37,971 nt of DNA from Promethearchaeota archaeon (GTDB lineage Archaea > Asgardarchaeota > Lokiarchaeia > Sigyniarchaeales > SOKP01), in assembly GCA_019894815.1 (NCBI GenBank), contig JAGXNU010000002.1:1-37971 (forward strand), in the 5' to 3' direction. Positions 5,308 to 14,806 of this stretch are shown here, in pieces. Below the pieces are notes generated by a model. It saw nothing but the letters and a program-made list of their open reading frames with translations, ran no database searches and was not told the origin of the DNA. The position numbers and the translations under genes were made by a program. How positions within the stretch are numbered: position 1 is the first letter of the stretch; each line of letters begins with the position of its first letter.

Positions 5308-5880
5308 ATGATAAAAAAAACTTTCAAAGAGATTTTAAATATTGATGATGCCGATTATAAAATAATCGAGATGATAGAAAAAGATCCGTCAATTACACAT
5401 TCCAAAATCGCTGTTGAGATTGAAAAATCTCAACCAGCTGTCGGAGCGCGAATAATAAAGCTTGAACGCAAGCATCTCTTAACGAAACAAGTTGGGTTTA
5501 ATATAAAGGAAGTGGATATTAAAACTGCTATTGTTTTCATCTCCACAAAAGATGTAGAGGGCGTAGTTTCCAAGATCTCAAAATGTCCTTTTATCAATCA
5601 TGCTTTTAAGATATCAGGAGAATTCAATTTATTATGTTTTATTTCAGCAACCGATCTCCAAACAATCGAAAAATTAGTAGATTTATGCTTTAGAAAGGAT
5701 CCTAATGTCATTAACGTCAAAACCAATATTCTAATAGAATCCGTTCATGATTTCGTGGTGCCTATTGATTTCCAAATCGAAAAATTCGATTTTCACGCTA
5801 CAAATTGCGGTCCTGATTGTAACCAAAATGTGAACCTCCCAAAATATCAGTTTGCTAAAGTTGAGGAAGAGGAAGAGTAA
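5308..5880 (+). CDS. Lrp/AsnC-type HTH regulator with Cys-containing C-terminal extension
   Basis: DYKIIEMIEKDPSITHSKIAVEIEKSQPAVGARIIKLE is an AsnC-type HTH, followed by a RAM-like domain. Cys positions: KCPF...NCGPDC. Confidence 0.7.
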   Translation: MIKKTFKEILNIDDADYKIIEMIEKDPSITHSKIAVEIEKSQPAVGARIIKLERKHLLTKQVGFNIKEVDIKTAIVFISTKDVEGVVSKISKCPFINHAFKISGEFNLLCFISATDLQTIEKLVDLCFRKDPNVINVKTNILIESVHDFVVPIDFQIEKFDFHATNCGPDCNQNVNLPKYQFAKVEEEEE

Positions 5881-6034: not shown

Positions 6035-6577
6035 TTATAGTAATACTCCATTTTTCTTGATTTTTTGACGCATACACTTATCTCCGCAGCCATTTTCTAT
6101 CGTTGGGTCATGATCATCGGAGCTAAAATCGATAGGTAAAATAAAATCTTTTGCTATTTCAGTTACAATCTCCATGGAAACAGACTGGACCTCTGGGTTA
6201 GACCTGAAATGATAATTTATTATATTATCTATCTTTGATAGTTCTGAACTTGCCAAAAGTATGCAAATATTATGGACACCACTTAATTTAAATGCGTTTA
6301 GCATGAATGGGCAGCATTTAGCCATCTCAAATATTTCATTAGGATTCTTAGTGTTGATTTCTATCGTTGCCAAATGAATATTAACAAGCTTAAAGTTAAT
6401 TCCTGGCTGGAATTGTAATATACCATCTTTTTCCAACTTTTTAATGCGCATACCAACTGTCGGTTGACTCCTATTGATGTTTTCGGCAATTTGGGTATGA
6501 GTGAGATTAGGATTTTCTTGAACCAGCGTAATAATTTGTCGATCTATATTATCTAGCTTTAATTTTTCTGAGATCAT
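6035..6577 (-). CDS. Lrp/AsnC-type HTH regulator with Cys-containing C-terminal extension (paralog of 5308..5880)
   Basis: DRQIITLVQENPNLTHTQIAENINRSQPTVGMRIKKLE HTH. Cys positions: CCPF...GCGDKC. Convergent with its paralog. Confidence 0.7.
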   Translation of the reverse strand: MISEKLKLDNIDRQIITLVQENPNLTHTQIAENINRSQPTVGMRIKKLEKDGILQFQPGINFKLVNIHLATIEINTKNPNEIFEMAKCCPFMLNAFKLSGVHNICILLASSELSKIDNIINYHFRSNPEVQSVSMEIVTEIAKDFILPIDFSSDDHDPTIENGCGDKCMRQKIKKNGVLL

Positions 6578-6683: not shown

Positions 6684-6944
6684 TTAATCGATAGTTATAG
6701 CTTCCAATTTACATGCGGTAGTACACATGTGGCACTTTACACACATATCTTCACGATCTTCCACGACCACGCATTTTGGTTCAGTATCTTTATCGATTAC
6801 TTCATATATCCCCCGAAAGCAAGCATTTTCGCAATCAAATGACTTGCACACCCTGCACTTGCTAGTGTCTATGTGATGGAACTTATAACTTTCGATTGGG
6901 TTTGGTTTTTCAGCGTCCCTCATCAAGTAATTCCTAATATTCAA
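6684..6944 (-). CDS. Small Cys-rich ferredoxin-like protein (probable di-cluster 4Fe-4S)
   Basis: CRVCKSFDCENAC and CVKCHMCTTAC motifs in 86 aa. Overlaps the stop of the upstream reductase by 11 nt. Confidence 0.7.
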   Translation of the reverse strand: MNIRNYLMRDAEKPNPIESYKFHHIDTSKCRVCKSFDCENACFRGIYEVIDKDTEPKCVVVEDREDMCVKCHMCTTACKLEAITID

Positions 6945-7878
6945 TTTTTACATTTTTTAAATAATCAAACGCAGAATATGCCGCGATAACACCCTCTGCA
7001 ACCCCAGTAATTGCTTGCTTAAAAGGAGCATCTGCAACATCTCCCGCAGCAAAAATTCCTGGCATATTGGTTTCCGACTTTCTATTAATGATGATTTCCC
7101 CTTTTTCATTTATTTTAGTTCCTATTCTTTGGGCAATCTCTGAATTAGGGATTGATCCGATCTCAATAAAGACGCCGTCAACCTCTAACTCTTTTCCATT
7201 ATCAAAAATCACGTGGTTAACTGTTGTTTTACCAACTATTTCAACCACGTTTGTGTTATTGATTATTTCTATTTTCTCATTTTCGTAAACCCTCTTCTTA
7301 TTTATGGGTTCCGCTCTTATTTCTTCTTTACGATAAATAATGTAGACCTTTTCCACATTTTGAGCCAAAAATAAAGCCTCTTTAGCAGCAGAATCACTTC
7401 CTCCAATAACACATACAACTTTATCTTTATAAAAGGGACCATCACAGGTAGCACAATAAGAAACTCCTTTACCCGCGAATTCGTTTTCTCCTGGAATTCC
7501 TAATTTGCGTCTTTCTGACCCCGTTGCGATACAAATCGACTTTGCCTTGAATTTTTGAAAAAATGAATGTAAAACAAAATAGTCTTCAACATTTTCAATG
7601 CTTCTAATCTCATCAGAAATGTAAGGAATGCTCAATGAGTTCATGTGGTCTTTGAACATTTCCATTAACCCTTGACCGCTTATTGAAGTGATTCCAGGAT
7701 AATTCTCGACAATATCCGTGGTAGCGATTAATCCTCCAAAAACTTTACCAACTATTAATACATCCATCGCGAAGCGAGCGGCATAAATTGCACATGCAAT
7801 GGCAGTAGGTCCACCACCCAATACTATTAGATCATATGTTTTCTCTAAATCTAAACTATCCATATCAATATTAAACAA
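6934..7878 (-). CDS. trxB: Thioredoxin-reductase-family flavoprotein; NADPH-binding signature not conserved
   Basis: FAD motif GGGPTAIACAIYAAR. Redox-active CATC. GD motif FAAGDV. The pyridine-nucleotide region reads GGSDSA...YRKEEIRA instead of GGGNSA...HRRxxxR. Confidence 0.85.
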   Translation of the reverse strand: MFNIDMDSLDLEKTYDLIVLGGGPTAIACAIYAARFAMDVLIVGKVFGGLIATTDIVENYPGITSISGQGLMEMFKDHMNSLSIPYISDEIRSIENVEDYFVLHSFFQKFKAKSICIATGSERRKLGIPGENEFAGKGVSYCATCDGPFYKDKVVCVIGGSDSAAKEALFLAQNVEKVYIIYRKEEIRAEPINKKRVYENEKIEIINNTNVVEIVGKTTVNHVIFDNGKELEVDGVFIEIGSIPNSEIAQRIGTKINEKGEIIINRKSETNMPGIFAAGDVADAPFKQAITGVAEGVIAAYSAFDYLKNVKIEY

Positions 7879-8509
7879 TTTTATCTCCTCCTATCAGTTC
7901 TTGTAGGACTTCCTCAGGTCCTACCATTCCTATAAATGATTTTTTATCATTTATTACAGTATAAGGGACGCTTGAAACGTCATAGGATTCAGCAATGTCC
8001 GAATGCGCCATGATATCAATGATAACTGATTGTATTTTGCCATTAGACGCGATTGCGAATTTATTAACGAACGTTATTATCTCTGGGCAATAAACACATG
8101 AATTGGTAATCATTACTTTGATTATTGATGGTTTTATCTTTTCAATATTTTCTTTGATGACCACTTCATAATAATTTTTGTCTCCTGAAAAAATGGTTAA
8201 AGTTTCAACGAAGGGTCGGATTTCAGCACCAAATGGTTTTGCTAAGTAGCGAATTATTTCTTTCACTTTATCATTGATGAATAAAATGGCAGGAAAGTGG
8301 TTGACTTCATAATTCTTAGAGACAACTGGATTAGAAACCTCTTTAATTGAAAGTAATTCGTTAGAACTTTCTTCATATATTTTAAGAATAGATCTTACAT
8401 TGTCATTATCCTCGATATTTCTACCCATAAATAGTGATAATTCCACTGGTTTTGTGAGCTTTACCATCTCGTCACGGATTAATTTATTAAAAACGTAAGC
8501 TATAGGCAT
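7871..8509 (-). CDS. Protein-disulfide oxidoreductase (PfPDO/glutaredoxin-like, two Trx folds), paralog 3
   Basis: C-terminal unit has CVYC. N-terminal unit has no CxxC. Collinear with the two upstream paralogs (..FPAILF.., ..VPYTVIND..). Confidence 0.75.
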   Translation of the reverse strand: MPIAYVFNKLIRDEMVKLTKPVELSLFMGRNIEDNDNVRSILKIYEESSNELLSIKEVSNPVVSKNYEVNHFPAILFINDKVKEIIRYLAKPFGAEIRPFVETLTIFSGDKNYYEVVIKENIEKIKPSIIKVMITNSCVYCPEIITFVNKFAIASNGKIQSVIIDIMAHSDIAESYDVSSVPYTVINDKKSFIGMVGPEEVLQELIGGDKIV

Positions 8510-8551
8510 TTTTTTTCTCTGATGTATAATATAATTTTAAAAATTTACTCT

Positions 8552-9262
8552 TTAATACTGAACGCGTATATTTCCTCCTAATAATTCTCGCATGATCTCA
8601 TTGGGTCCAACAATTCCAACCAATGCGTTCTGATCGTTGATTATTGTATATGGAACTCCCGATGCATCATAATATTGACCAATATCTGGGTTTGCATTAA
8701 TGTCAATAATTATTGTTCTTATTTTTCCTCCAGACGCTAATGCAAATTGATTACAGATCGTTGCTACTTGCGGACAATATGGACATGTATTTGATATTAT
8801 GACTTTAATTGTAGCAGGTTCAATTCGATTTAGATTTTGTTTAATTGCAGCCTCATAGTAATTTGGAGCCCCTGCAAAAGTAAATAGCGCTTGAATAAAT
8901 GGTTGGATCTCAGCACCTTGTGGTGCTGCTAAATATCGAATGAATTCAGTACCATGTTCATCCACAAATAAAATCGTTGGAACACGTTGAATGTCATACC
9001 GCTTTGCAAATTCGGGATTTTCATCAATAGATAATTCTTCAATCGTTAACATGCTATTTGAATTTTCTTCATATACTCGTAATAAAGACATGAATTGACC
9101 ACAATCCATGCAAGCCCTTATTTTGGTTCCATCAGGTCGAGCGCTTTGAGATGTAAAAACGGTTAACTTCACGGGTCTTTTTAATTTAGCCATTTCTTGT
9201 TTTATAATTTCTTTATATTTATCATCTTGAGACACTTTAATCCACCACTTTAATAATTTCAT
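8552..9262 (-). CDS. Protein-disulfide oxidoreductase (PfPDO-like), paralog 2
   Basis: N-terminal unit CMDC and C-terminal unit CPYC. Its start overlaps the upstream gene's stop (TAATG). Confidence 0.8.
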   Translation of the reverse strand: MKLLKWWIKVSQDDKYKEIIKQEMAKLKRPVKLTVFTSQSARPDGTKIRACMDCGQFMSLLRVYEENSNSMLTIEELSIDENPEFAKRYDIQRVPTILFVDEHGTEFIRYLAAPQGAEIQPFIQALFTFAGAPNYYEAAIKQNLNRIEPATIKVIISNTCPYCPQVATICNQFALASGGKIRTIIIDINANPDIGQYYDASGVPYTIINDQNALVGIVGPNEIMRELLGGNIRVQY

Positions 9263-9966
9263 TAGGCATACATTCCACCAAAATCCCTTTGTCCTTTTGT
9301 TAATTTATCCAATAAATCTTGAGGTGAAAACATTCCATAGATGTGCTCTTTTTCATTAACAACAGTATGAGGTACGCCTTGAATTTGATATTTTTTTGCT
9401 ATGTCTGGATTCAAATTTACATCAATTACTTCAGCAGTTATCTTCCCTTTAGAGACTATTGCAAATAATGTCACTACAGGCACGGTTGCAGGACAATATG
9501 GACACGTTGGAGTGATAAAGATCTTCATGTTTGATTTAGCAATTTTTTTGAGATGAGATTGAATCTGGTCACTATAATAGGGTCTCACTCCAGAAAAATA
9601 CTGAATACTGTTAAGGAACGGTACGAATTCTGATCCTGAAGGGTTAGCCGAGTATCTGATAATCTCCTTACCATTTTCATCAACAAAAAGTATCGCAGGA
9701 ATCCGATTCACATTATAACGTTCTGTTTCTTCTTTATTCTCCTCAGTTGATAACTCTTCATGATCTAATTTCCCATCGGAAAGTTCTGAAAGGGTCTTTA
9801 ATAGATCGTGCGTCCCCTCGCAAGCCATGCACATTCGTTTTTTTGTACCATCTTTTTGTGTTTTAAAATCCGTGAATAACTTTAGCACAACTTTATCTTT
9901 TAATTTACTCAATTCATTTTTTATATTTTTTAATTCATTTTCTGAGAATAGCATTTCATCACCCAT
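9262..9966 (-). CDS. Protein-disulfide oxidoreductase (PfPDO-like), paralog 1
   Basis: N-terminal unit CMAC and C-terminal unit CPYC. Same architecture as 8552..9262. Confidence 0.8.
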   Translation of the reverse strand: MGDEMLFSENELKNIKNELSKLKDKVVLKLFTDFKTQKDGTKKRMCMACEGTHDLLKTLSELSDGKLDHEELSTEENKEETERYNVNRIPAILFVDENGKEIIRYSANPSGSEFVPFLNSIQYFSGVRPYYSDQIQSHLKKIAKSNMKIFITPTCPYCPATVPVVTLFAIVSKGKITAEVIDVNLNPDIAKKYQIQGVPHTVVNEKEHIYGMFSPQDLLDKLTKGQRDFGGMYA

Positions 9967-10208: not shown

Positions 10209-11246
10209 ATGATACCGACATATTCACCAGCAATAGTTTACATCCATATAAATGGATCAAATGAACCAAAAATCAATTTTTGGTATCCTTCTGAACTTCC
10301 AGAAGACGTGAGAACATTAATTGGAATGAAATGCAGTTCTATCATTTCTGACGATATGAGCTATATACCTGAAGTACTTTTAGTATTTCCTCTCCCGTCA
10401 TTAAAATCAAAAATGTTGATTAAATATTTTGAAAGCCATAAAACGTCAGAACAAGAAATTCCAAATCGATCAGCATTAATATTTGTTTTTTCTGAAGAAA
10501 ATGATGTGATTTTTTATAGATACATGAGTTATATTGATTCATATTTTGGAGATACAATCAAAAAAATTAAAGAACTTGAAATGAATAAAAATGACAAACA
10601 AACAATTTTCACTGAAATCATTAAGTTAAAAGATACATTAATCGAATCCACCGAATATTTATACTCGAAAAGTCAATTTTTATTGAAATCGCAAGATCCT
10701 CAAGACTCTCCAACAGAATTAGATTCTAAAGTAGACCCTCAATCCAAATTTAAAGTAGTGATTTTAGGAGATCCAAGCGTCGGTAAAACATCCAGTGTCT
10801 TAAGATTTACCGATAACGTTTTTTTACGGGCTTATATTCCCACAATGGGTCTTAACATCACCCAAAAAAGATTTAAAATAAATTATAATTCCATGGAACT
10901 CGTATTATGGGATGTAGGTGGACAGCAAAAATTTGAAACAATCAGAAAACAATTTTATGAAGGTGCAAGTGCTTACATTTTATTATTTGATCTTACCAGT
11001 GCAAAATCTTTTGCAAAAATACCAAAATGGCATGAAGACATTGTAAGTTATTTAGGGAAAAAGGCCCTTATTAAAGGGTATCTCATAGGAAATAAAATAG
11101 ATTTAAATAAAGACAGGATTGTTAGCGTAATAGACGGAATTAGACTTGCTAAAGCACTGGACGTTGATTATTTTGAATCCTCTGCATTAACTGGACACAA
11201 TATCGAGTTTTATTTTAGGAAAATATCAAATGACCTATTACAATAA
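10209..11246 (+). CDS. Rab/Arf-like small GTPase with about 180-aa N-terminal (possibly longin-like) domain
   Basis: Complete G1-G5 set: GDPSVGKTS, switch-I T in PTMG, WDVGGQ, GNKIDL, SSALTG. The N-terminal domain is unassigned. Confidence 0.8.
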   Translation: MIPTYSPAIVYIHINGSNEPKINFWYPSELPEDVRTLIGMKCSSIISDDMSYIPEVLLVFPLPSLKSKMLIKYFESHKTSEQEIPNRSALIFVFSEENDVIFYRYMSYIDSYFGDTIKKIKELEMNKNDKQTIFTEIIKLKDTLIESTEYLYSKSQFLLKSQDPQDSPTELDSKVDPQSKFKVVILGDPSVGKTSSVLRFTDNVFLRAYIPTMGLNITQKRFKINYNSMELVLWDVGGQQKFETIRKQFYEGASAYILLFDLTSAKSFAKIPKWHEDIVSYLGKKALIKGYLIGNKIDLNKDRIVSVIDGIRLAKALDVDYFESSALTGHNIEFYFRKISNDLLQ

Positions 11247-12230
11247 TAAATCGCATGGATCTTTGAGTTTGAACTTAAATTTTTTCTTTTTGCCATAAAA
11301 TTTTAAAATCCAAAAAGCATCAGGGCAATAAGTTGTTATAAAACCTTGAAAATTCTCAGTTGGAAAACTAAATTCAATTTCTTTAAATTCTTCCATACGT
11401 CTAATAGCAATCTTTTCAGCTATATCAACTCTTAATTGGTGTCCCACTCCACCCCCACAACAACTATGAGGGACATCCAAAATGGTGAATCCACTTTTTG
11501 CATAAATATCACTCATAGATCTCTCTATTTCTGGAAATTCAATGTATTTCAATGGACAAGCATGCTGAATCACGAGATTTCCAGATTTTTTCTCACTTGA
11601 ATGAGTTAAATACTCCGTGAAATACTTGATTTCAATCCCAAGTTCACTGTAATGTTTCTTAAAAACCATGTAACAACTGGGACAAGTGGTAATTATTTTC
11701 TTATAACCATTTTGGGTGAACAATTGCTTATTTTTCTCCACTAATAGTTCATAAGTTTTTAGCTCACCTGTACAAAGGATTGGATATCCACAACATATTT
11801 CTTGGTCAATTACAGTGAAATCAACGTCTTTTTTAATTAAATATCTAACAATGTTTTCAGCGTATTTGGGCGTTTTGACTGTTGTGAAACATCCAAAATA
11901 TAATAATGTCTCACTTTCCTTCGATATTCCCTCAGGTAATTTGACTCGGCTTTTATTTTTGGTAAATGGTGTTCCATATACTTTTAAAGCCTCGATTGAT
12001 GAGTTCAATCCTTCGATTTTGTTGCCATCTTTTAAAAATTTTTGTTTAAGTAGGAAACGTTCAGATTGCGTGCCACAAGCTCCACAATGAATACAGTTAT
12101 ATAACTTATAATAATCCTCTTGCTTGAATGAATAAGAATTTGCATCTTTGAGGAGATTTAATACTTTTTGATTAGACAAGAAATTATCAGGATCTACATT
12201 TTCACAAGGACAGTCATAATCTTCATTCAT
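11238..12230 (-). CDS. HdrD/GlpC-like Fe-S oxidoreductase with two CCG domains
   Basis: CIHCGAC cluster motif. CCGYP..C and CCGGGVG CCG-domain motifs with CPSCY and CPDAF partners. Confidence 0.75.
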   Translation of the reverse strand: MNEDYDCPCENVDPDNFLSNQKVLNLLKDANSYSFKQEDYYKLYNCIHCGACGTQSERFLLKQKFLKDGNKIEGLNSSIEALKVYGTPFTKNKSRVKLPEGISKESETLLYFGCFTTVKTPKYAENIVRYLIKKDVDFTVIDQEICCGYPILCTGELKTYELLVEKNKQLFTQNGYKKIITTCPSCYMVFKKHYSELGIEIKYFTEYLTHSSEKKSGNLVIQHACPLKYIEFPEIERSMSDIYAKSGFTILDVPHSCCGGGVGHQLRVDIAEKIAIRRMEEFKEIEFSFPTENFQGFITTYCPDAFWILKFYGKKKKFKFKLKDPCDLLL

Positions 12231-12238
12231 GATTTAAT

Positions 12239-13234
12239 TTAAAGCAGTAATTCGAATATATCCTTTGCTTTTGGTTCTATTTTGCAAATCTTACTAAAAC
12301 GAGCTAGAATCCACCAACAACTGGGACAGTAAGTTGTAGCATAATCAATATCTGTTTTGTTAAAATCCTCCATTCTCTTATAAGCTATAGCCTTAATGAT
12401 GTCTGTACGATGCATATATCCAATTCCTCCTCCACAACACCACATTGGAATATCTTCTACTTCATATCCGCTTTTTTCGAGTATTTTATCAACCATCTTA
12501 TCTACTCCTTCTCTGCCCCTGTTAATTAATTGACATAAATGTTGCACTCCTATTTTCCCCTCCTTCTTATCCTCAGATGGTCTCAGATAATCGCTGATGT
12601 AAACAAATTCCACTTCCTTTTCCATTTCTGGTGCATAATATTTATTAAATAGAAAATAACAAGCAGGACACAAGCAAATTATCTTCTTAAACTGGTTAAA
12701 AATTTCAATATTTTCCTTTTTACATGTTTCAAACTCTTTCAATGAGCCGCTTGCAAACCACGGCCACCCGCAGCAGATTTCCTCATCTAAAATGGTAAAG
12801 TCTATACCCTGTTTAAGTAGATATTGAAGTGAATGCTCCGTATATCTCGGAATTCTAATTGTCGAAAGACATCCCATAAAATATAATGTATCGGACTTCT
12901 CGGAAATTCCATCAGGACGTCGTATGCGCATCTTTTTTGATGGATAGGGGGTTCTATACTTCTTAAAACAATCTTGTAGTTCTTTTAACCCATTAAAAGT
13001 ATTCCCATCTTTGAGAAATTTCTCTTTTAACTGAATTCTCTCTTCCTCAGTTTCGCATTCCCCGCAATCAACGCAATTATATATTTTATAATAATCATCC
13101 CTATTAAACTTAAAATTATCCTTATTTCGTATTAATTCCCTTATTTTCTCATCAGATAGAAAATTCTTTGAATCGACTTCATCTGTAGGGTAATTCTTTC
13201 TCCCTTTAATCCTTTCTTTCACTGGTTCCACCAA
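12239..13234 (-). CDS. HdrD/GlpC-like Fe-S oxidoreductase with two CCG domains (tandem paralog)
   Basis: CVDCGEC, then CCGWP, CPACY, CCGGGIG, CPSCW. Collinear with 11238..12230. Confidence 0.75.
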   Translation of the reverse strand: MVEPVKERIKGRKNYPTDEVDSKNFLSDEKIRELIRNKDNFKFNRDDYYKIYNCVDCGECETEEERIQLKEKFLKDGNTFNGLKELQDCFKKYRTPYPSKKMRIRRPDGISEKSDTLYFMGCLSTIRIPRYTEHSLQYLLKQGIDFTILDEEICCGWPWFASGSLKEFETCKKENIEIFNQFKKIICLCPACYFLFNKYYAPEMEKEVEFVYISDYLRPSEDKKEGKIGVQHLCQLINRGREGVDKMVDKILEKSGYEVEDIPMWCCGGGIGYMHRTDIIKAIAYKRMEDFNKTDIDYATTYCPSCWWILARFSKICKIEPKAKDIFELLL

Positions 13235-13352
13235 ATATTTGAAGTGTATGTTTACTCTTAAAAATGGGGTTAAATTATTATTAACTTTTAATGAAATTAG
13301 GGCAAGTTAAATTAAAAATTGTAAGAGAAAAAAATTCAAAATGGCCTAAATC

Positions 13353-13511
13353 TTATTTTTTTTCTTTAAGTTTAACATCAGTTCGTTGGATTCCAACTTC
13401 CTTACTACTTGGAAGTGCAGTACCACAATTATCTCGGTTTGATTCATTTGCTTTTAGTGCTTTATCTAATTCGGCCTCTAATTCATCATCAGACAATTCT
13501 TTATCATTCAT
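13353..13511 (-). CDS. Possible 52-aa acidic/basic small protein (not in the ORF track)
   Basis: Hand translation: MNDKELSDDELEAELDKALKANESNRDNCGTALPSSKEVGIQRTDVKLKEKK. Same strand as all neighbours. It competes with the low-complexity + strand ORF 13291..13515. Confidence 0.3.
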   Translation of the reverse strand: MNDKELSDDELEAELDKALKANESNRDNCGTALPSSKEVGIQRTDVKLKEKK

Positions 13512-13595
13512 ATGAATAAATCAGTAATGAAAATATTTAAGGCTTATATTTATGAATTATTGATAAAAGAATGTTAGAAAAAAGGAGTATATAAT

Positions 13596-13961
13596 TTATT
13601 TATTGAGAAAATCTATAACGGCTTGTTCTTTCTCCTTAGGTCTGCGTTCTGGCACTAAAATAAAAGCCTCATTTATAGTTTCATAGAAATCAGAACGCAT
13701 GTAGAGGTTACAATAACAAGTACCGTGCTCTTTAACATCTAAAGGTGCATAATCACAAGGACATATCAAATCTCTATCCAATTCCCTATTTCCAGAAGCT
13801 AATCTACAGGGACAGGATTGATATCCCAGCTTATTTTTATTCACAGTTAAACCATCAAGTAATTCGCTTAACGTTTCATCTTCCTTATTCAATACCCATT
13901 GATTTTTTTGAGCCACTTTATTACAATATTCCAACATTCCTTCTTTTGTGTCCATATCCAT
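13596..13961 (-). CDS. Ferredoxin:thioredoxin reductase catalytic-subunit (FTRc) homolog
   Basis: CPC-x16-CPC-x13-CYC arrangement (CPCRLASGNRELDRDLICPCDYAPLDVKEHGTCYC) resembles the FTR beta-chain cluster and disulfide motif. Confidence 0.7.
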   Translation of the reverse strand: MDMDTKEGMLEYCNKVAQKNQWVLNKEDETLSELLDGLTVNKNKLGYQSCPCRLASGNRELDRDLICPCDYAPLDVKEHGTCYCNLYMRSDFYETINEAFILVPERRPKEKEQAVIDFLNK

Positions 13962-14275
13962 TATTTCATTATCTCCTCATATTTATTTGGATCATATCCA
14001 ACAACAAATTTATCATCACAAACTAAGAATGGGTAGGCAATCCTATCTGGTTTATATTTCTCTCTGAGGTATTCAAGAATTTCTGACTTCTGTTTTGATG
14101 AAAGGCTATCCAGATCAATGTATTTATATTTAATATCTCGATCCTTTAGAAATTTCTTACATTTTTTACACCACATGCATGTGCTAAGGGTGTAAATACT
14201 CACTTCATGAGAATCATTCTTACCTTCAACTTCATTAAAAAGTTCCCGCATAAATTCTGGAAGCATAATTATCAC
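13961..14275 (-). CDS. Glutaredoxin/NrdH-like small thiol protein
   Basis: CMWC active-site position followed by KFLKDRDIKYKYIDLD. About 100 aa. 1-nt stop/start overlap with the FTRc homolog. Confidence 0.65.
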   Translation of the reverse strand: MIIMLPEFMRELFNEVEGKNDSHEVSIYTLSTCMWCKKCKKFLKDRDIKYKYIDLDSLSSKQKSEILEYLREKYKPDRIAYPFLVCDDKFVVGYDPNKYEEIMK

Positions 14276-14347
14276 TTATATTGATTTTTTGATATTTAAT
14301 TGAAAGATTGAATTAAATGATATTAAATTAAGGTTTATAAATTAAAA

Positions 14348-14806
14348 TTAATTTTGAATTTTTAACTTTTTAATATTCTCACGCCAATTAACATCGATGC
14401 ATTCGAATGCTTTTTCGGTACGCTCTCTTATGTCCACATCACAAGAATCAATTAAAATCCCTAATTGTTGTAAAGCACGTTTATCTCCTATTTTCATTAA
14501 ACTATCAATAATTAAGAATAATCTGGCTTTATCTTGATTCTCTTCTGGCTTTTCAAGCTCTTCAGATAAGAATTTAAGTATTGACAATGTAGATTTTGCA
14601 TTTCTAATTTCACCCATTACCTCAATTATGCGATTTATTACTACCGCATCATTTTCTTTATTTATAGCTTTGATTAAAAGATTAACTGCACGCCCCTCTT
14701 TTAGGTGTCCTAATTTTCTTGCAGCCGCAACTCTTTCCATGGTTTCGCCGTGAAATAATTTCCGAATAGCTTCGTTGAATTCATCTTTTTTAGTATCTGG
14801 ATCCAT
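14348..14806 (-). CDS. HEAT-repeat (PBS-lyase type) protein
   Basis: Repeating AAARKLGHLKEGRAVNLLIKAL..D....VRxxA-like units. Confidence 0.6.
   Translation of the reverse strand: MDPDTKKDEFNEAIRKLFHGETMERVAAARKLGHLKEGRAVNLLIKAINKENDAVVINRIIEVMGEIRNAKSTLSILKFLSEELEKPEENQDKARLFLIIDSLMKIGDKRALQQLGILIDSCDVDIRERTEKAFECIDVNWRENIKKLKIQN

Follow-up and report, generated by a model that had tools for sequence, protein, structure and literature searches.

Two genes for HdrD-like proteins with CCG domains lie close to a gene for a homolog of the catalytic subunit of ferredoxin-thioredoxin reductase (FTR) in the DNA of a Promethearchaeota archaeon, and this locus raises the question of whether they form one disulfide-reducing system and of what kind that system is. 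The DNA analyzed, here called the window, is a stretch of 37,971 nucleotides (nt) (GenBank assembly GCA_019894815.1, contig JAGXNU010000002.1, positions 1 to 37,971) from a metagenome-assembled genome (MAG) of 2.13 Mb that is 71% complete and has a G+C content of about 31%. On its minus strand, between positions 11238 and 14806, the genes are ordered HEAT-repeat protein (HEAT), glutaredoxin-like redoxin (Grx), FTR catalytic-subunit homolog (FTRc), a 52-amino-acid (52-aa) open reading frame (ORF) termed sm52, CCG2, and CCG1. An original prediction, made from the DNA letters, had described five ORFs here as a second redox operon with an unfamiliar combination of genes; ORF calls and Pfam matches place all five on the minus strand at the predicted positions, and the sixth of the six products that it mentioned is sm52, which sits inside the 360-nt gap between FTRc and CCG2. 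The answer to which we lean, with modest confidence, is that the stretch is the upstream half of a conserved, ferredoxin-powered island for thiol repair and oxidative stress in one Lokiarchaeia-type family, and that the island is organized in separate transcription units.

The conservation of the gene neighborhood was followed in a sample of 69 genomes of the family, including that of the window, in which the pairings of FTRc and CCG2 were read by hand from coordinate tables. FTRc is present in 63 and CCG2 in 54 of the 69 genomes. In 49 of those 54, a single contig carries both genes, with CCG2 downstream of FTRc in the same orientation; the distance stays within 3.5 kb in 48 of them. The two genes are separated by sm52 alone (0.3 to 0.9 kb), by a further 1 to 3.5 kb, or, in one genome, by 8 kb, and the order FTRc-sm52-CCG2 is kept in about half of the family genomes. 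The common insert between sm52 and CCG2 measures about 2.6 to 2.8 kb and holds two adjacent ORFs on the opposite strand, 350 and about 370 aa long, neither of which matches a Pfam family; it occurs in roughly one third to half of the family genomes (for example, L034:6697-8987 on the minus strand and L022:3477-5735 on the plus strand). Grx-FTRc-sm52 without CCG2 is found in genus g14 (four genomes) and in a few members of the genus to which the window belongs. The co-conservation of the CCG and FTRc-Grx genes, for which a synteny check had been proposed, thus holds beyond this genome, both in the 49 family genomes and in two other Asgard lineages described below.

The downstream half of the island follows CCG1. 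In the window, a Ras-family GTPase gene on the plus strand (10209 to 11246; Pfam Ras), which encodes a 180-aa N-terminal extension and shares its terminal 9 nt with the end of CCG1, stands between CCG1 and the minus-strand segment from 6684 to 9966, where ORF calls and Pfam identify PDO_a (9262-9966), PDO_b (8552-9262), PDO_c (7871-8509), a thioredoxin reductase (TrxR)-like flavoprotein (6934-7878), and an 86-aa ferredoxin of the 2x[4Fe-4S] type (6684-6944). The Ras gene separates the CCG and PDO genes also in loci L022, L023, L026, L027, and L029 and is absent from L028, L030, L032, L033, and L035; where it is missing, CCG1 is followed after about 140 to 180 nt by PDO_a, PDO_b, sometimes PDO_c, and the TrxR-like gene. 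CCG1 is contiguous with this PDO/TrxR part in the latter five loci and in L069. The Ras gene thus divides the island as a mobile or variable insertion and stands outside the redox system, and the supposed second operon is not separate from the first, given that without the insertion the CCG genes run straight into the PDO, TrxR-like, and ferredoxin genes. The prediction that no flavoprotein is adjacent is true in the narrow sense only, as the conserved island also includes the genes for the TrxR-like flavoprotein, the ferredoxin, and the three PDO-like proteins. The MFS and B12-binding genes that flank the island in the window were not found in the 20 loci compared, so that the island is more stable than the DNA around it. 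A pair of convergent genes for Lrp/AsnC-type regulators (5308 to 5880, plus strand; 6035 to 6577, minus strand) travels with the island and is also seen in L023, L025, L059, and L060; it adjoins the TrxR end in some genomes and Grx-FTRc in genus g14, and its products are candidate regulators of the island.

The FTRc gene (13596 to 13961, minus strand) encodes 121 aa and matches the Pfam model FeThRed_B (PF02943) with 69.3 bits against a cut-off of 22 (68.9 bits in the whole-genome scan). Its six cysteines form three CxC pairs, CPC(50,52)-x14-CPC(67,69)-x12-CYC(82,84), and the spacings of x16 and x13 given previously have to be corrected accordingly. The closest structures in the PDB are 7pwe_A (E = 1.4e-25) and 4tpu_A (E = 1.1e-22), whereas cyanobacterial FTRc reaches only about 1e-3 to 1e-4; all six cysteines align with those of 7pwe_A, 4tpu_A, and cyanobacterial FTRc. 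The tyrosine of CYC, noted earlier as a departure from the CHC of plant FTR, is indeed present but is not unusual: it is best regarded as a family trait, because both solved proteins of the ferredoxin:disulfide reductase (FDR) type (4tpu_A and 7pwe_A) align with CYC, whereas cyanobacterial 2pvd_A has CHC. FTRc ends at residue 121 with no further cysteine, and the C-terminal rubredoxin domain is absent from it. The adjoining Grx gene (13961 to 14275, minus strand) encodes 104 aa with the active site C33-M-W-C36 and matches Pfam Glutaredoxin (PF00462) with 42.1 bits (cut-off, 22.9); in the PDB it is closest to 3nzn (E = 1.3e-13) and 5cax (E = 4e-12), and it remains under the equivalog cut-offs of YruB (TIGR02196; 47.5 versus 88.55 bits) and NrdH (TIGR02194; 34.6 versus 85.75 bits).

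Several features tie Grx to FTRc. The stop codon of Grx and the start codon of FTRc share 1 nt (TAATG), as had been predicted, and in each of the 38 Asgard loci, from many families, that have enough upstream sequence, the gene immediately before FTRc is a Grx gene. In one locus (L062) the two are naturally fused into a 231-aa Grx-FTRc protein, and in a locus of another Asgard family (L065) Grx overlaps an FTRc-rubredoxin fusion, which is the architecture of the Methanosarcina FDR. Residues 5 to 74 of the 7pwe_A chain match Grx, and residues 93 to 192 match FTRc. FTRc as such is present in 160 of the 301 Asgard genomes sampled; many of the FTRc matches outside the family contain one in-frame TAA (or TAG/TGA), where the match probably overruns the true gene end. 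The HEAT gene (14348 to 14806, minus strand; 152 aa; Pfam HEAT_2 and HEAT_PBS) lies upstream of Grx in most family loci, though neither in genus g14 nor outside the family, and the 72 nt between HEAT and Grx contain no T-run; HEAT is probably the first gene of a HEAT-Grx-FTRc unit. As judged from their sequences, Grx and FTRc are a known module of the FDR type, of which CYC and the pairing with Grx are already known features. The predicted identity of an archaeal FDR-type enzyme coupled to a Grx-like protein is thus supported by the 7pwe_A and 4tpu_A matches and by the adjacency of Grx, and the supposed novelty of the pairing, which is known in FDR systems and fused in 7PWE, is not.

Grx is the presumed direct substrate of the FDR-type FTRc. 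FDR is reported to reduce a Methanosarcina thioredoxin, and an FDR to pass electrons to the class III ribonucleotide reductase of M. barkeri, whose subtype uses a glutaredoxin-like NrdH (both as cited in PMC6262447 and PMC9176816). NrdD is present in all 12 genomes of the window's genus, encoded elsewhere in the genome, and is a possible client of FDR-Grx.

The sm52 gene (13353 to 13511, minus strand) is a conserved ORF specific to the family, being found in 63 of the 68 sampled family genomes and in none of the 233 genomes of other Asgard families. An alignment of 16 orthologs reveals an acidic N-terminal stretch, an invariant D-x-C-G with the only cysteine of the protein, and a conserved E-[VI]-G-[IVL]-Q-R-[TS] in which Q-R is invariant. 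It has no Pfam match at E<=10 and no NCBIfam match, and the protein atlas holds it in anonymous clusters only. It remains beside FTRc where CCG2 is absent; in genome G311 it stands beside CCG2, behind an insert. An analog of the FTR variable subunit and a remnant of a rubredoxin were both considered for sm52 and set aside in view of the single cysteine and the missing Pfam and NCBIfam matches. Second matches to sm52 occur in about a dozen family genomes, and several genomes, that of the window among them (G000:C102:3204-3350, plus strand), encode a diverged copy with about 45% identity elsewhere.

CCG2 (12239 to 13234, minus strand; 331 aa) and CCG1 (11238 to 12230, minus strand; 330 aa), which follows 8 nt downstream, each contain two Pfam CCG domains and are 43% identical. 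The cysteines of CCG2 are C54xxC57xxC60, then C122, CC154/155, and C189xxC192, and then C234, CC266/267, and C303xxC306; both five-cysteine CCG motifs, the CxxCxxC, and Cys187 are invariant in 21 orthologs. There is only one CxxCxxC in each CCG protein, as the original prediction stated. The clade lacks ferredoxin motif 1 and the fourth cysteine of motif 2, both of which are present in distant HdrD-like proteins of the same alignment, so that at most one N-terminal cluster, with three cysteine ligands, would be expected. In CCG1, the second CCG motif has become CxxA in 10 of 11 orthologs, and additional cysteines are conserved at positions 7, 9, 153, and 326; for these two reasons its sequence marks CCG1 as a specialized paralog and not a decaying copy. 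CCG1 is not beside CCG2 in G002, G019, G017, and many g12 genomes, and many genomes have CCG2 alone.

The CCG proteins are a narrow, Asgard-only clade with HdrD/EtfD-like features. A search of 1.84 billion cluster representatives returned only 10 at E<=1e-30. The nearest full-length relatives score >220 bits, and the scores then drop, through an interval occupied by fragments, to 113 bits, which the first generic CCG protein reaches. All named relatives are proteins from Asgard MAGs that are labeled "(Fe-S)-binding" or "heterodisulfide reductase-related," and a genome scan with the metagenomic relative P0124 matched only distant proteins. The CCG proteins fall under the cut-offs of the curated equivalogs TfrB (79 to 86 versus 385 bits), LdhH (66 versus 800), GlpC (43 to 53 versus 278), and GlcF (15 versus 333), as well as of the HdrB models NF041780 (21.4 versus 450) and TIGR03288 (38.2 versus 345), and no LutA match is listed for them; a grouping with LutA, GlcF, or GlpC, which had been named as an outcome that would refute the original prediction, was thus not found. 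No HdrE gene occurs in the island, where the neighbors are Grx, FTRc, sm52, Ras, PDO, TrxR, and ferredoxin genes (the whole genome was not searched for it), and by Pfam no HdrA or HdrC gene occurs in the window, in line with the prediction. CCG2 was modeled with AlphaFold2 from 107 sequences (mean pLDDT, 94.5), and a Foldseek search with the model found M. smegmatis EtfD first (TMq 0.70, 341 columns, whole length), then LutA, and then several HdrB chains. No membrane-like segment is seen in any of the six proteins encoded from HEAT to CCG1.

Genes of the CCG2 clade were found in two other Asgard lineages, genus g49 (family f26) and a Helarchaeota-type lineage. The g49 ortholog, 59% identical, lies 6 to 7 kb downstream of Grx-FTRc on the same strand (in three genomes with a shared contig), and between them lie genes for a rubredoxin-reductase-like flavoprotein, superoxide reductase, ferritin, rubrerythrins, and an acyl-CoA dehydrogenase; in all three loci a gene for an MBL-rhodanese fusion is directly upstream of CCG2, at 24 to 35 nt, and in one locus a YeeE-type Sulf_transp gene follows CCG2. 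One of the g49 stretches, L052:8515-15739, is a compact oxygen-defense island between Grx-FTRc and CCG2 that also contains two rubrerythrin genes and one for a DOMON protein. The Helarchaeota-type homologs are 42 to 43% identical and are convergent with genes for a 118-aa thioredoxin and a rubredoxin in four of four loci. Two loci have one or two Grx genes in divergent orientation to the CCG gene, and FTRc is 1.7 to 2.8 kb away in two loci, in one of which Grx and a rubredoxin-reductase-like gene adjoin it. In G314 the CCG homolog is divergent from a TusA-DsrE-cysteine desulfurase-IscU cluster. A quick maximum-likelihood tree contains four groups, namely, Helarchaeota-type proteins, CCG1, g49, and the family CCG2, with g49 as sister to the family CCG2; by this grouping, the CCG2 clade is older than the family.

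The layout of transcription units was considered on the basis of the gaps between the genes, which amount to 72 nt between HEAT and Grx, -1 nt between Grx and FTRc, 84 nt between FTRc and sm52, 118 nt between sm52 and CCG2, and 8 nt between CCG2 and CCG1. Oligo-T tracts are the usual termination signal in archaea. A T6 run (13578 to 13583, minus strand), a candidate oligo-T terminator, lies 13 nt past the FTRc stop, and a T7 run (13328 to 13334, minus strand), likewise a candidate terminator, lies 19 nt past the sm52 stop and before CCG2; runs of six or more T occur twice in the 274 nt of internal intergenic sequence versus not once in the six coding sequences (3288 nt). These runs and the opposite-strand insertions between the modules in relatives argue for separate units, most likely HEAT-Grx-FTRc, sm52, and CCG2-CCG1, the last continuing from PDO onward where the Ras gene is absent. 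A scan for sigma-70 promoters and hairpin terminators, which is uninformative for an archaeon, gave counts at or under the shuffled expectation.

From the gene content, motifs, fold, conservation, and neighborhood described above, we infer the electron-transfer steps and substrates as follows. The first unit would provide a two-component ferredoxin:redoxin reductase of the FDR type. By analogy with FTR, reduced ferredoxin would give two single electrons to the [4Fe-4S] cluster of FDR, whose predicted ligands are C50, C67, C69, and C82; the cluster would then reduce the adjacent C52-C84 disulfide, as in FTR and FDR, and the resulting dithiol would reduce the CMWC disulfide of Grx, which in turn may reduce client proteins. 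The second unit would contribute the single-cysteine, family-specific sm52. The third unit, which in relatives goes on into the PDO, TrxR-like, and ferredoxin genes, would encode a soluble, HdrD-like reductase of S-S bonds. By analogy with HdrB, HdrD, and DsrK, single electrons may enter CCG2 at the remaining N-terminal cluster and pass to two HdrB-type noncubane [4Fe-4S] sites, and an S-S bond would be cleaved between the two noncubane clusters. The substrate is most likely a redoxin-fold protein disulfide, a protein persulfide, or a small disulfide from thiol repair, because the recurrent neighbors of CCG2 are genes for redoxin-fold proteins, rubredoxin, and oxidative-stress proteins. An arrangement of CCG2 in series with FDR-Grx and one in parallel are both compatible with these data.

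Several points weigh against the thiol-repair island. Most Asgard families, genus g14, and some genomes of the window's genus possess Grx-FTRc but no CCG2, and therefore FDR does not need CCG2, contrary to what the predicted pairing implied. The genome of the window (G000) is unusually rich in Hdr-like genes, with at least 12 CCG-domain genes on 11 contigs at 71% completeness, including an 835-aa frame on C170, which makes a CCG gene near any given cluster less surprising a priori. In LutA, GlcF, GlpC, and EtfD, CCG domains simply transfer electrons, and the structure that CCG2 resembles most is that of EtfD. Only 48% of the 21 CCG2 orthologs retain Cys89, which is a candidate for the fourth ligand of the N-terminal cluster. 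The neighborhood shared by the three lineages may have been inherited from one ancestor and not formed again independently, and the quick tree does not require independent reassociation. At 31% G+C, finally, the T-runs are only suggestive with regard to separate units.

The main rival takes CCG2 and CCG1 to be electron-transfer subunits of the EtfD, LutA, GlcF, or GlpC kind that serve a dehydrogenase or an electron transfer flavoprotein (ETF) encoded elsewhere, so that their proximity to FDR-Grx would be inherited synteny. The ranking of M. smegmatis EtfD and then LutA among the structural matches, the acyl-CoA dehydrogenase gene near the CCG homolog in g49 and in two Helarchaeota loci, and the many CCG genes of the genome are all in its favor, and yet the island of the family encodes no dehydrogenase, ETF, or quinone-linked partner, the CCG proteins lack the membrane segment of EtfD, and they score far below the curated GlpC and GlcF models. 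Moreover, redoxin-fold genes recur as neighbors in three lineages with different gene orders. We consider such a relay unlikely, while granting it more weight than any of the explanations that follow.

A rather improbable alternative is that CCG2 acts on sulfane sulfur, reducing persulfides or polysulfides on rhodanese, TusA/DsrE, or redoxin-fold carriers and releasing sulfide. The analogy here is with DsrK, which acts on DsrC, and with the Hdr-like complexes of sulfur oxidizers, which act on carrier-bound sulfur, and it gains from the MBL-rhodanese fusion gene that precedes CCG2 in all three g49 loci, from the Sulf_transp gene in one of them, and from the sulfur-transfer cluster in G314. The last of these contexts, however, is missing in three other Helarchaeota-type loci, the Sulf_transp gene is confined to a single g49 locus, and the island in the window has no rhodanese, TusA, or DsrE gene. 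TusA-DsrE-cysteine desulfurase was accordingly rejected as a conserved partner of the CCG clade, being found in G314 only and not in the three related loci. Bacillithiol disulfide was also rejected as a substrate of CCG2. BshA and BshC homologs have been noted in Asgard archaea (PMC7278568); among 61 family genomes, BshC (PF10079) was matched in 0 of the 60 others and once in the MAG of the window, on another contig (G000:C232:1415-2482, plus strand; 40 bits; a 585-aa frame), where a contaminating contig or a recent acquisition is possible. A bolder proposal within the thiol-repair reading, to which we give only a small chance, is that the CCG2 clade is a new class of Fe-S redoxin reductase, soluble and derived from HdrD, which would use electrons from ferredoxin or rubredoxin and noncubane clusters to reduce disulfides or persulfides of PDO, Grx, or thioredoxin; if so, it would add to FTR/FDR a third way of reducing protein thiols with Fe-S clusters, distinct from the flavin reductases.

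The weakest explanation, the originally predicted single operon of six co-transcribed genes whose products form one FDR-Grx-CCG complex, a new composite disulfide reductase, accords with the common strand and short gaps in the window and with the FTRc-sm52-CCG2 order in about half of the family, but is made very unlikely by the T6 and T7 runs past FTRc and sm52, by the two opposite-strand ORFs or the up to 8 kb between the modules in many relatives, by the convergence of the Helarchaeota-type CCG gene with the redoxin genes, and by the wide occurrence of FDR-Grx without CCG2.

With the thiol-repair island as the preferred reading, the locus can be compared with known systems. Like the archaeal PDO/TrxR systems and ferredoxin-dependent flavin TrxR (FFTR), the island encodes three PDO-like proteins with two thioredoxin folds, a TrxR-like flavoprotein, and a ferredoxin. 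No report of a PDO/TrxR system with an HdrD-like pair and FDR-Grx attached was found in a literature search that omits most subscription journals, nor was a description found there of the clade of CCG2 and CCG1 or of its conserved linkage with redoxin genes. The island gathers every converter from reductant to thiol that these archaea appear to use, namely, FDR-Grx, the TrxR-like protein with three PDOs and ferredoxin, and the HdrD-like pair. If CCG2 reduces redoxin-fold proteins or carrier persulfides, CCG chemistry would extend from the energy metabolism of methanogens and sulfate reducers to general thiol repair, and a clade annotated only as "(Fe-S)-binding protein" would gain a function; if it does not, the result would be the annotation of a known FDR system and of orphan CCG genes.

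Among CCG-domain enzymes, CCG2 shares with HdrD, HdrB, and DsrK two full C-x31-CC-x33/35-CxxC motifs and an HdrB-like fold, and with HdrD also the domain order, an Fe-S domain followed by two CCG domains. HdrD, however, has an N-terminal 2x[4Fe-4S] domain with two CxxCxxCxxxC motifs, whereas CCG2 keeps three cysteines of one motif; the window offers no HdrE, HdrA/C, or DsrMJOP partner, and the CCG2 clade is confined to Asgard archaea. EtfD is a membrane-anchored protein. The M. smegmatis EtfD (PDB 9OJN) is the best whole-length structural match of CCG2, but it has 742 residues versus the 331 of CCG2, which has no transmembrane segment; the identity is 18%, and the island contains no ETF genes.

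The closest counterpart of the Grx-FTRc module is the Methanosarcina FDR (PDB 4TPU), with which it shares the FTRc-like fold, the CPC...CPC...CYC arrangement, and a small partner of the redoxin fold. As to the variable subunit that partners plant and cyanobacterial FTR, sm52, the only small gene beside FTRc, matches no Pfam or NCBIfam model. The Methanosarcina protein, of 173 aa, carries a C-terminal rubredoxin domain, whereas the FTRc of the window, of 121 aa, does without it; the partner in the window is a separate, translationally coupled Grx with a CMWC active site, and the sm52 and HEAT genes are additional. In PDB 7PWE, named "Ferredoxin-thioredoxin reductase subunit B," 196 aa form one polypeptide, in contrast to the two overlapping genes of the window; because both of these genes match separate parts of its chain A, 7PWE is the fused form of Grx and FTRc.

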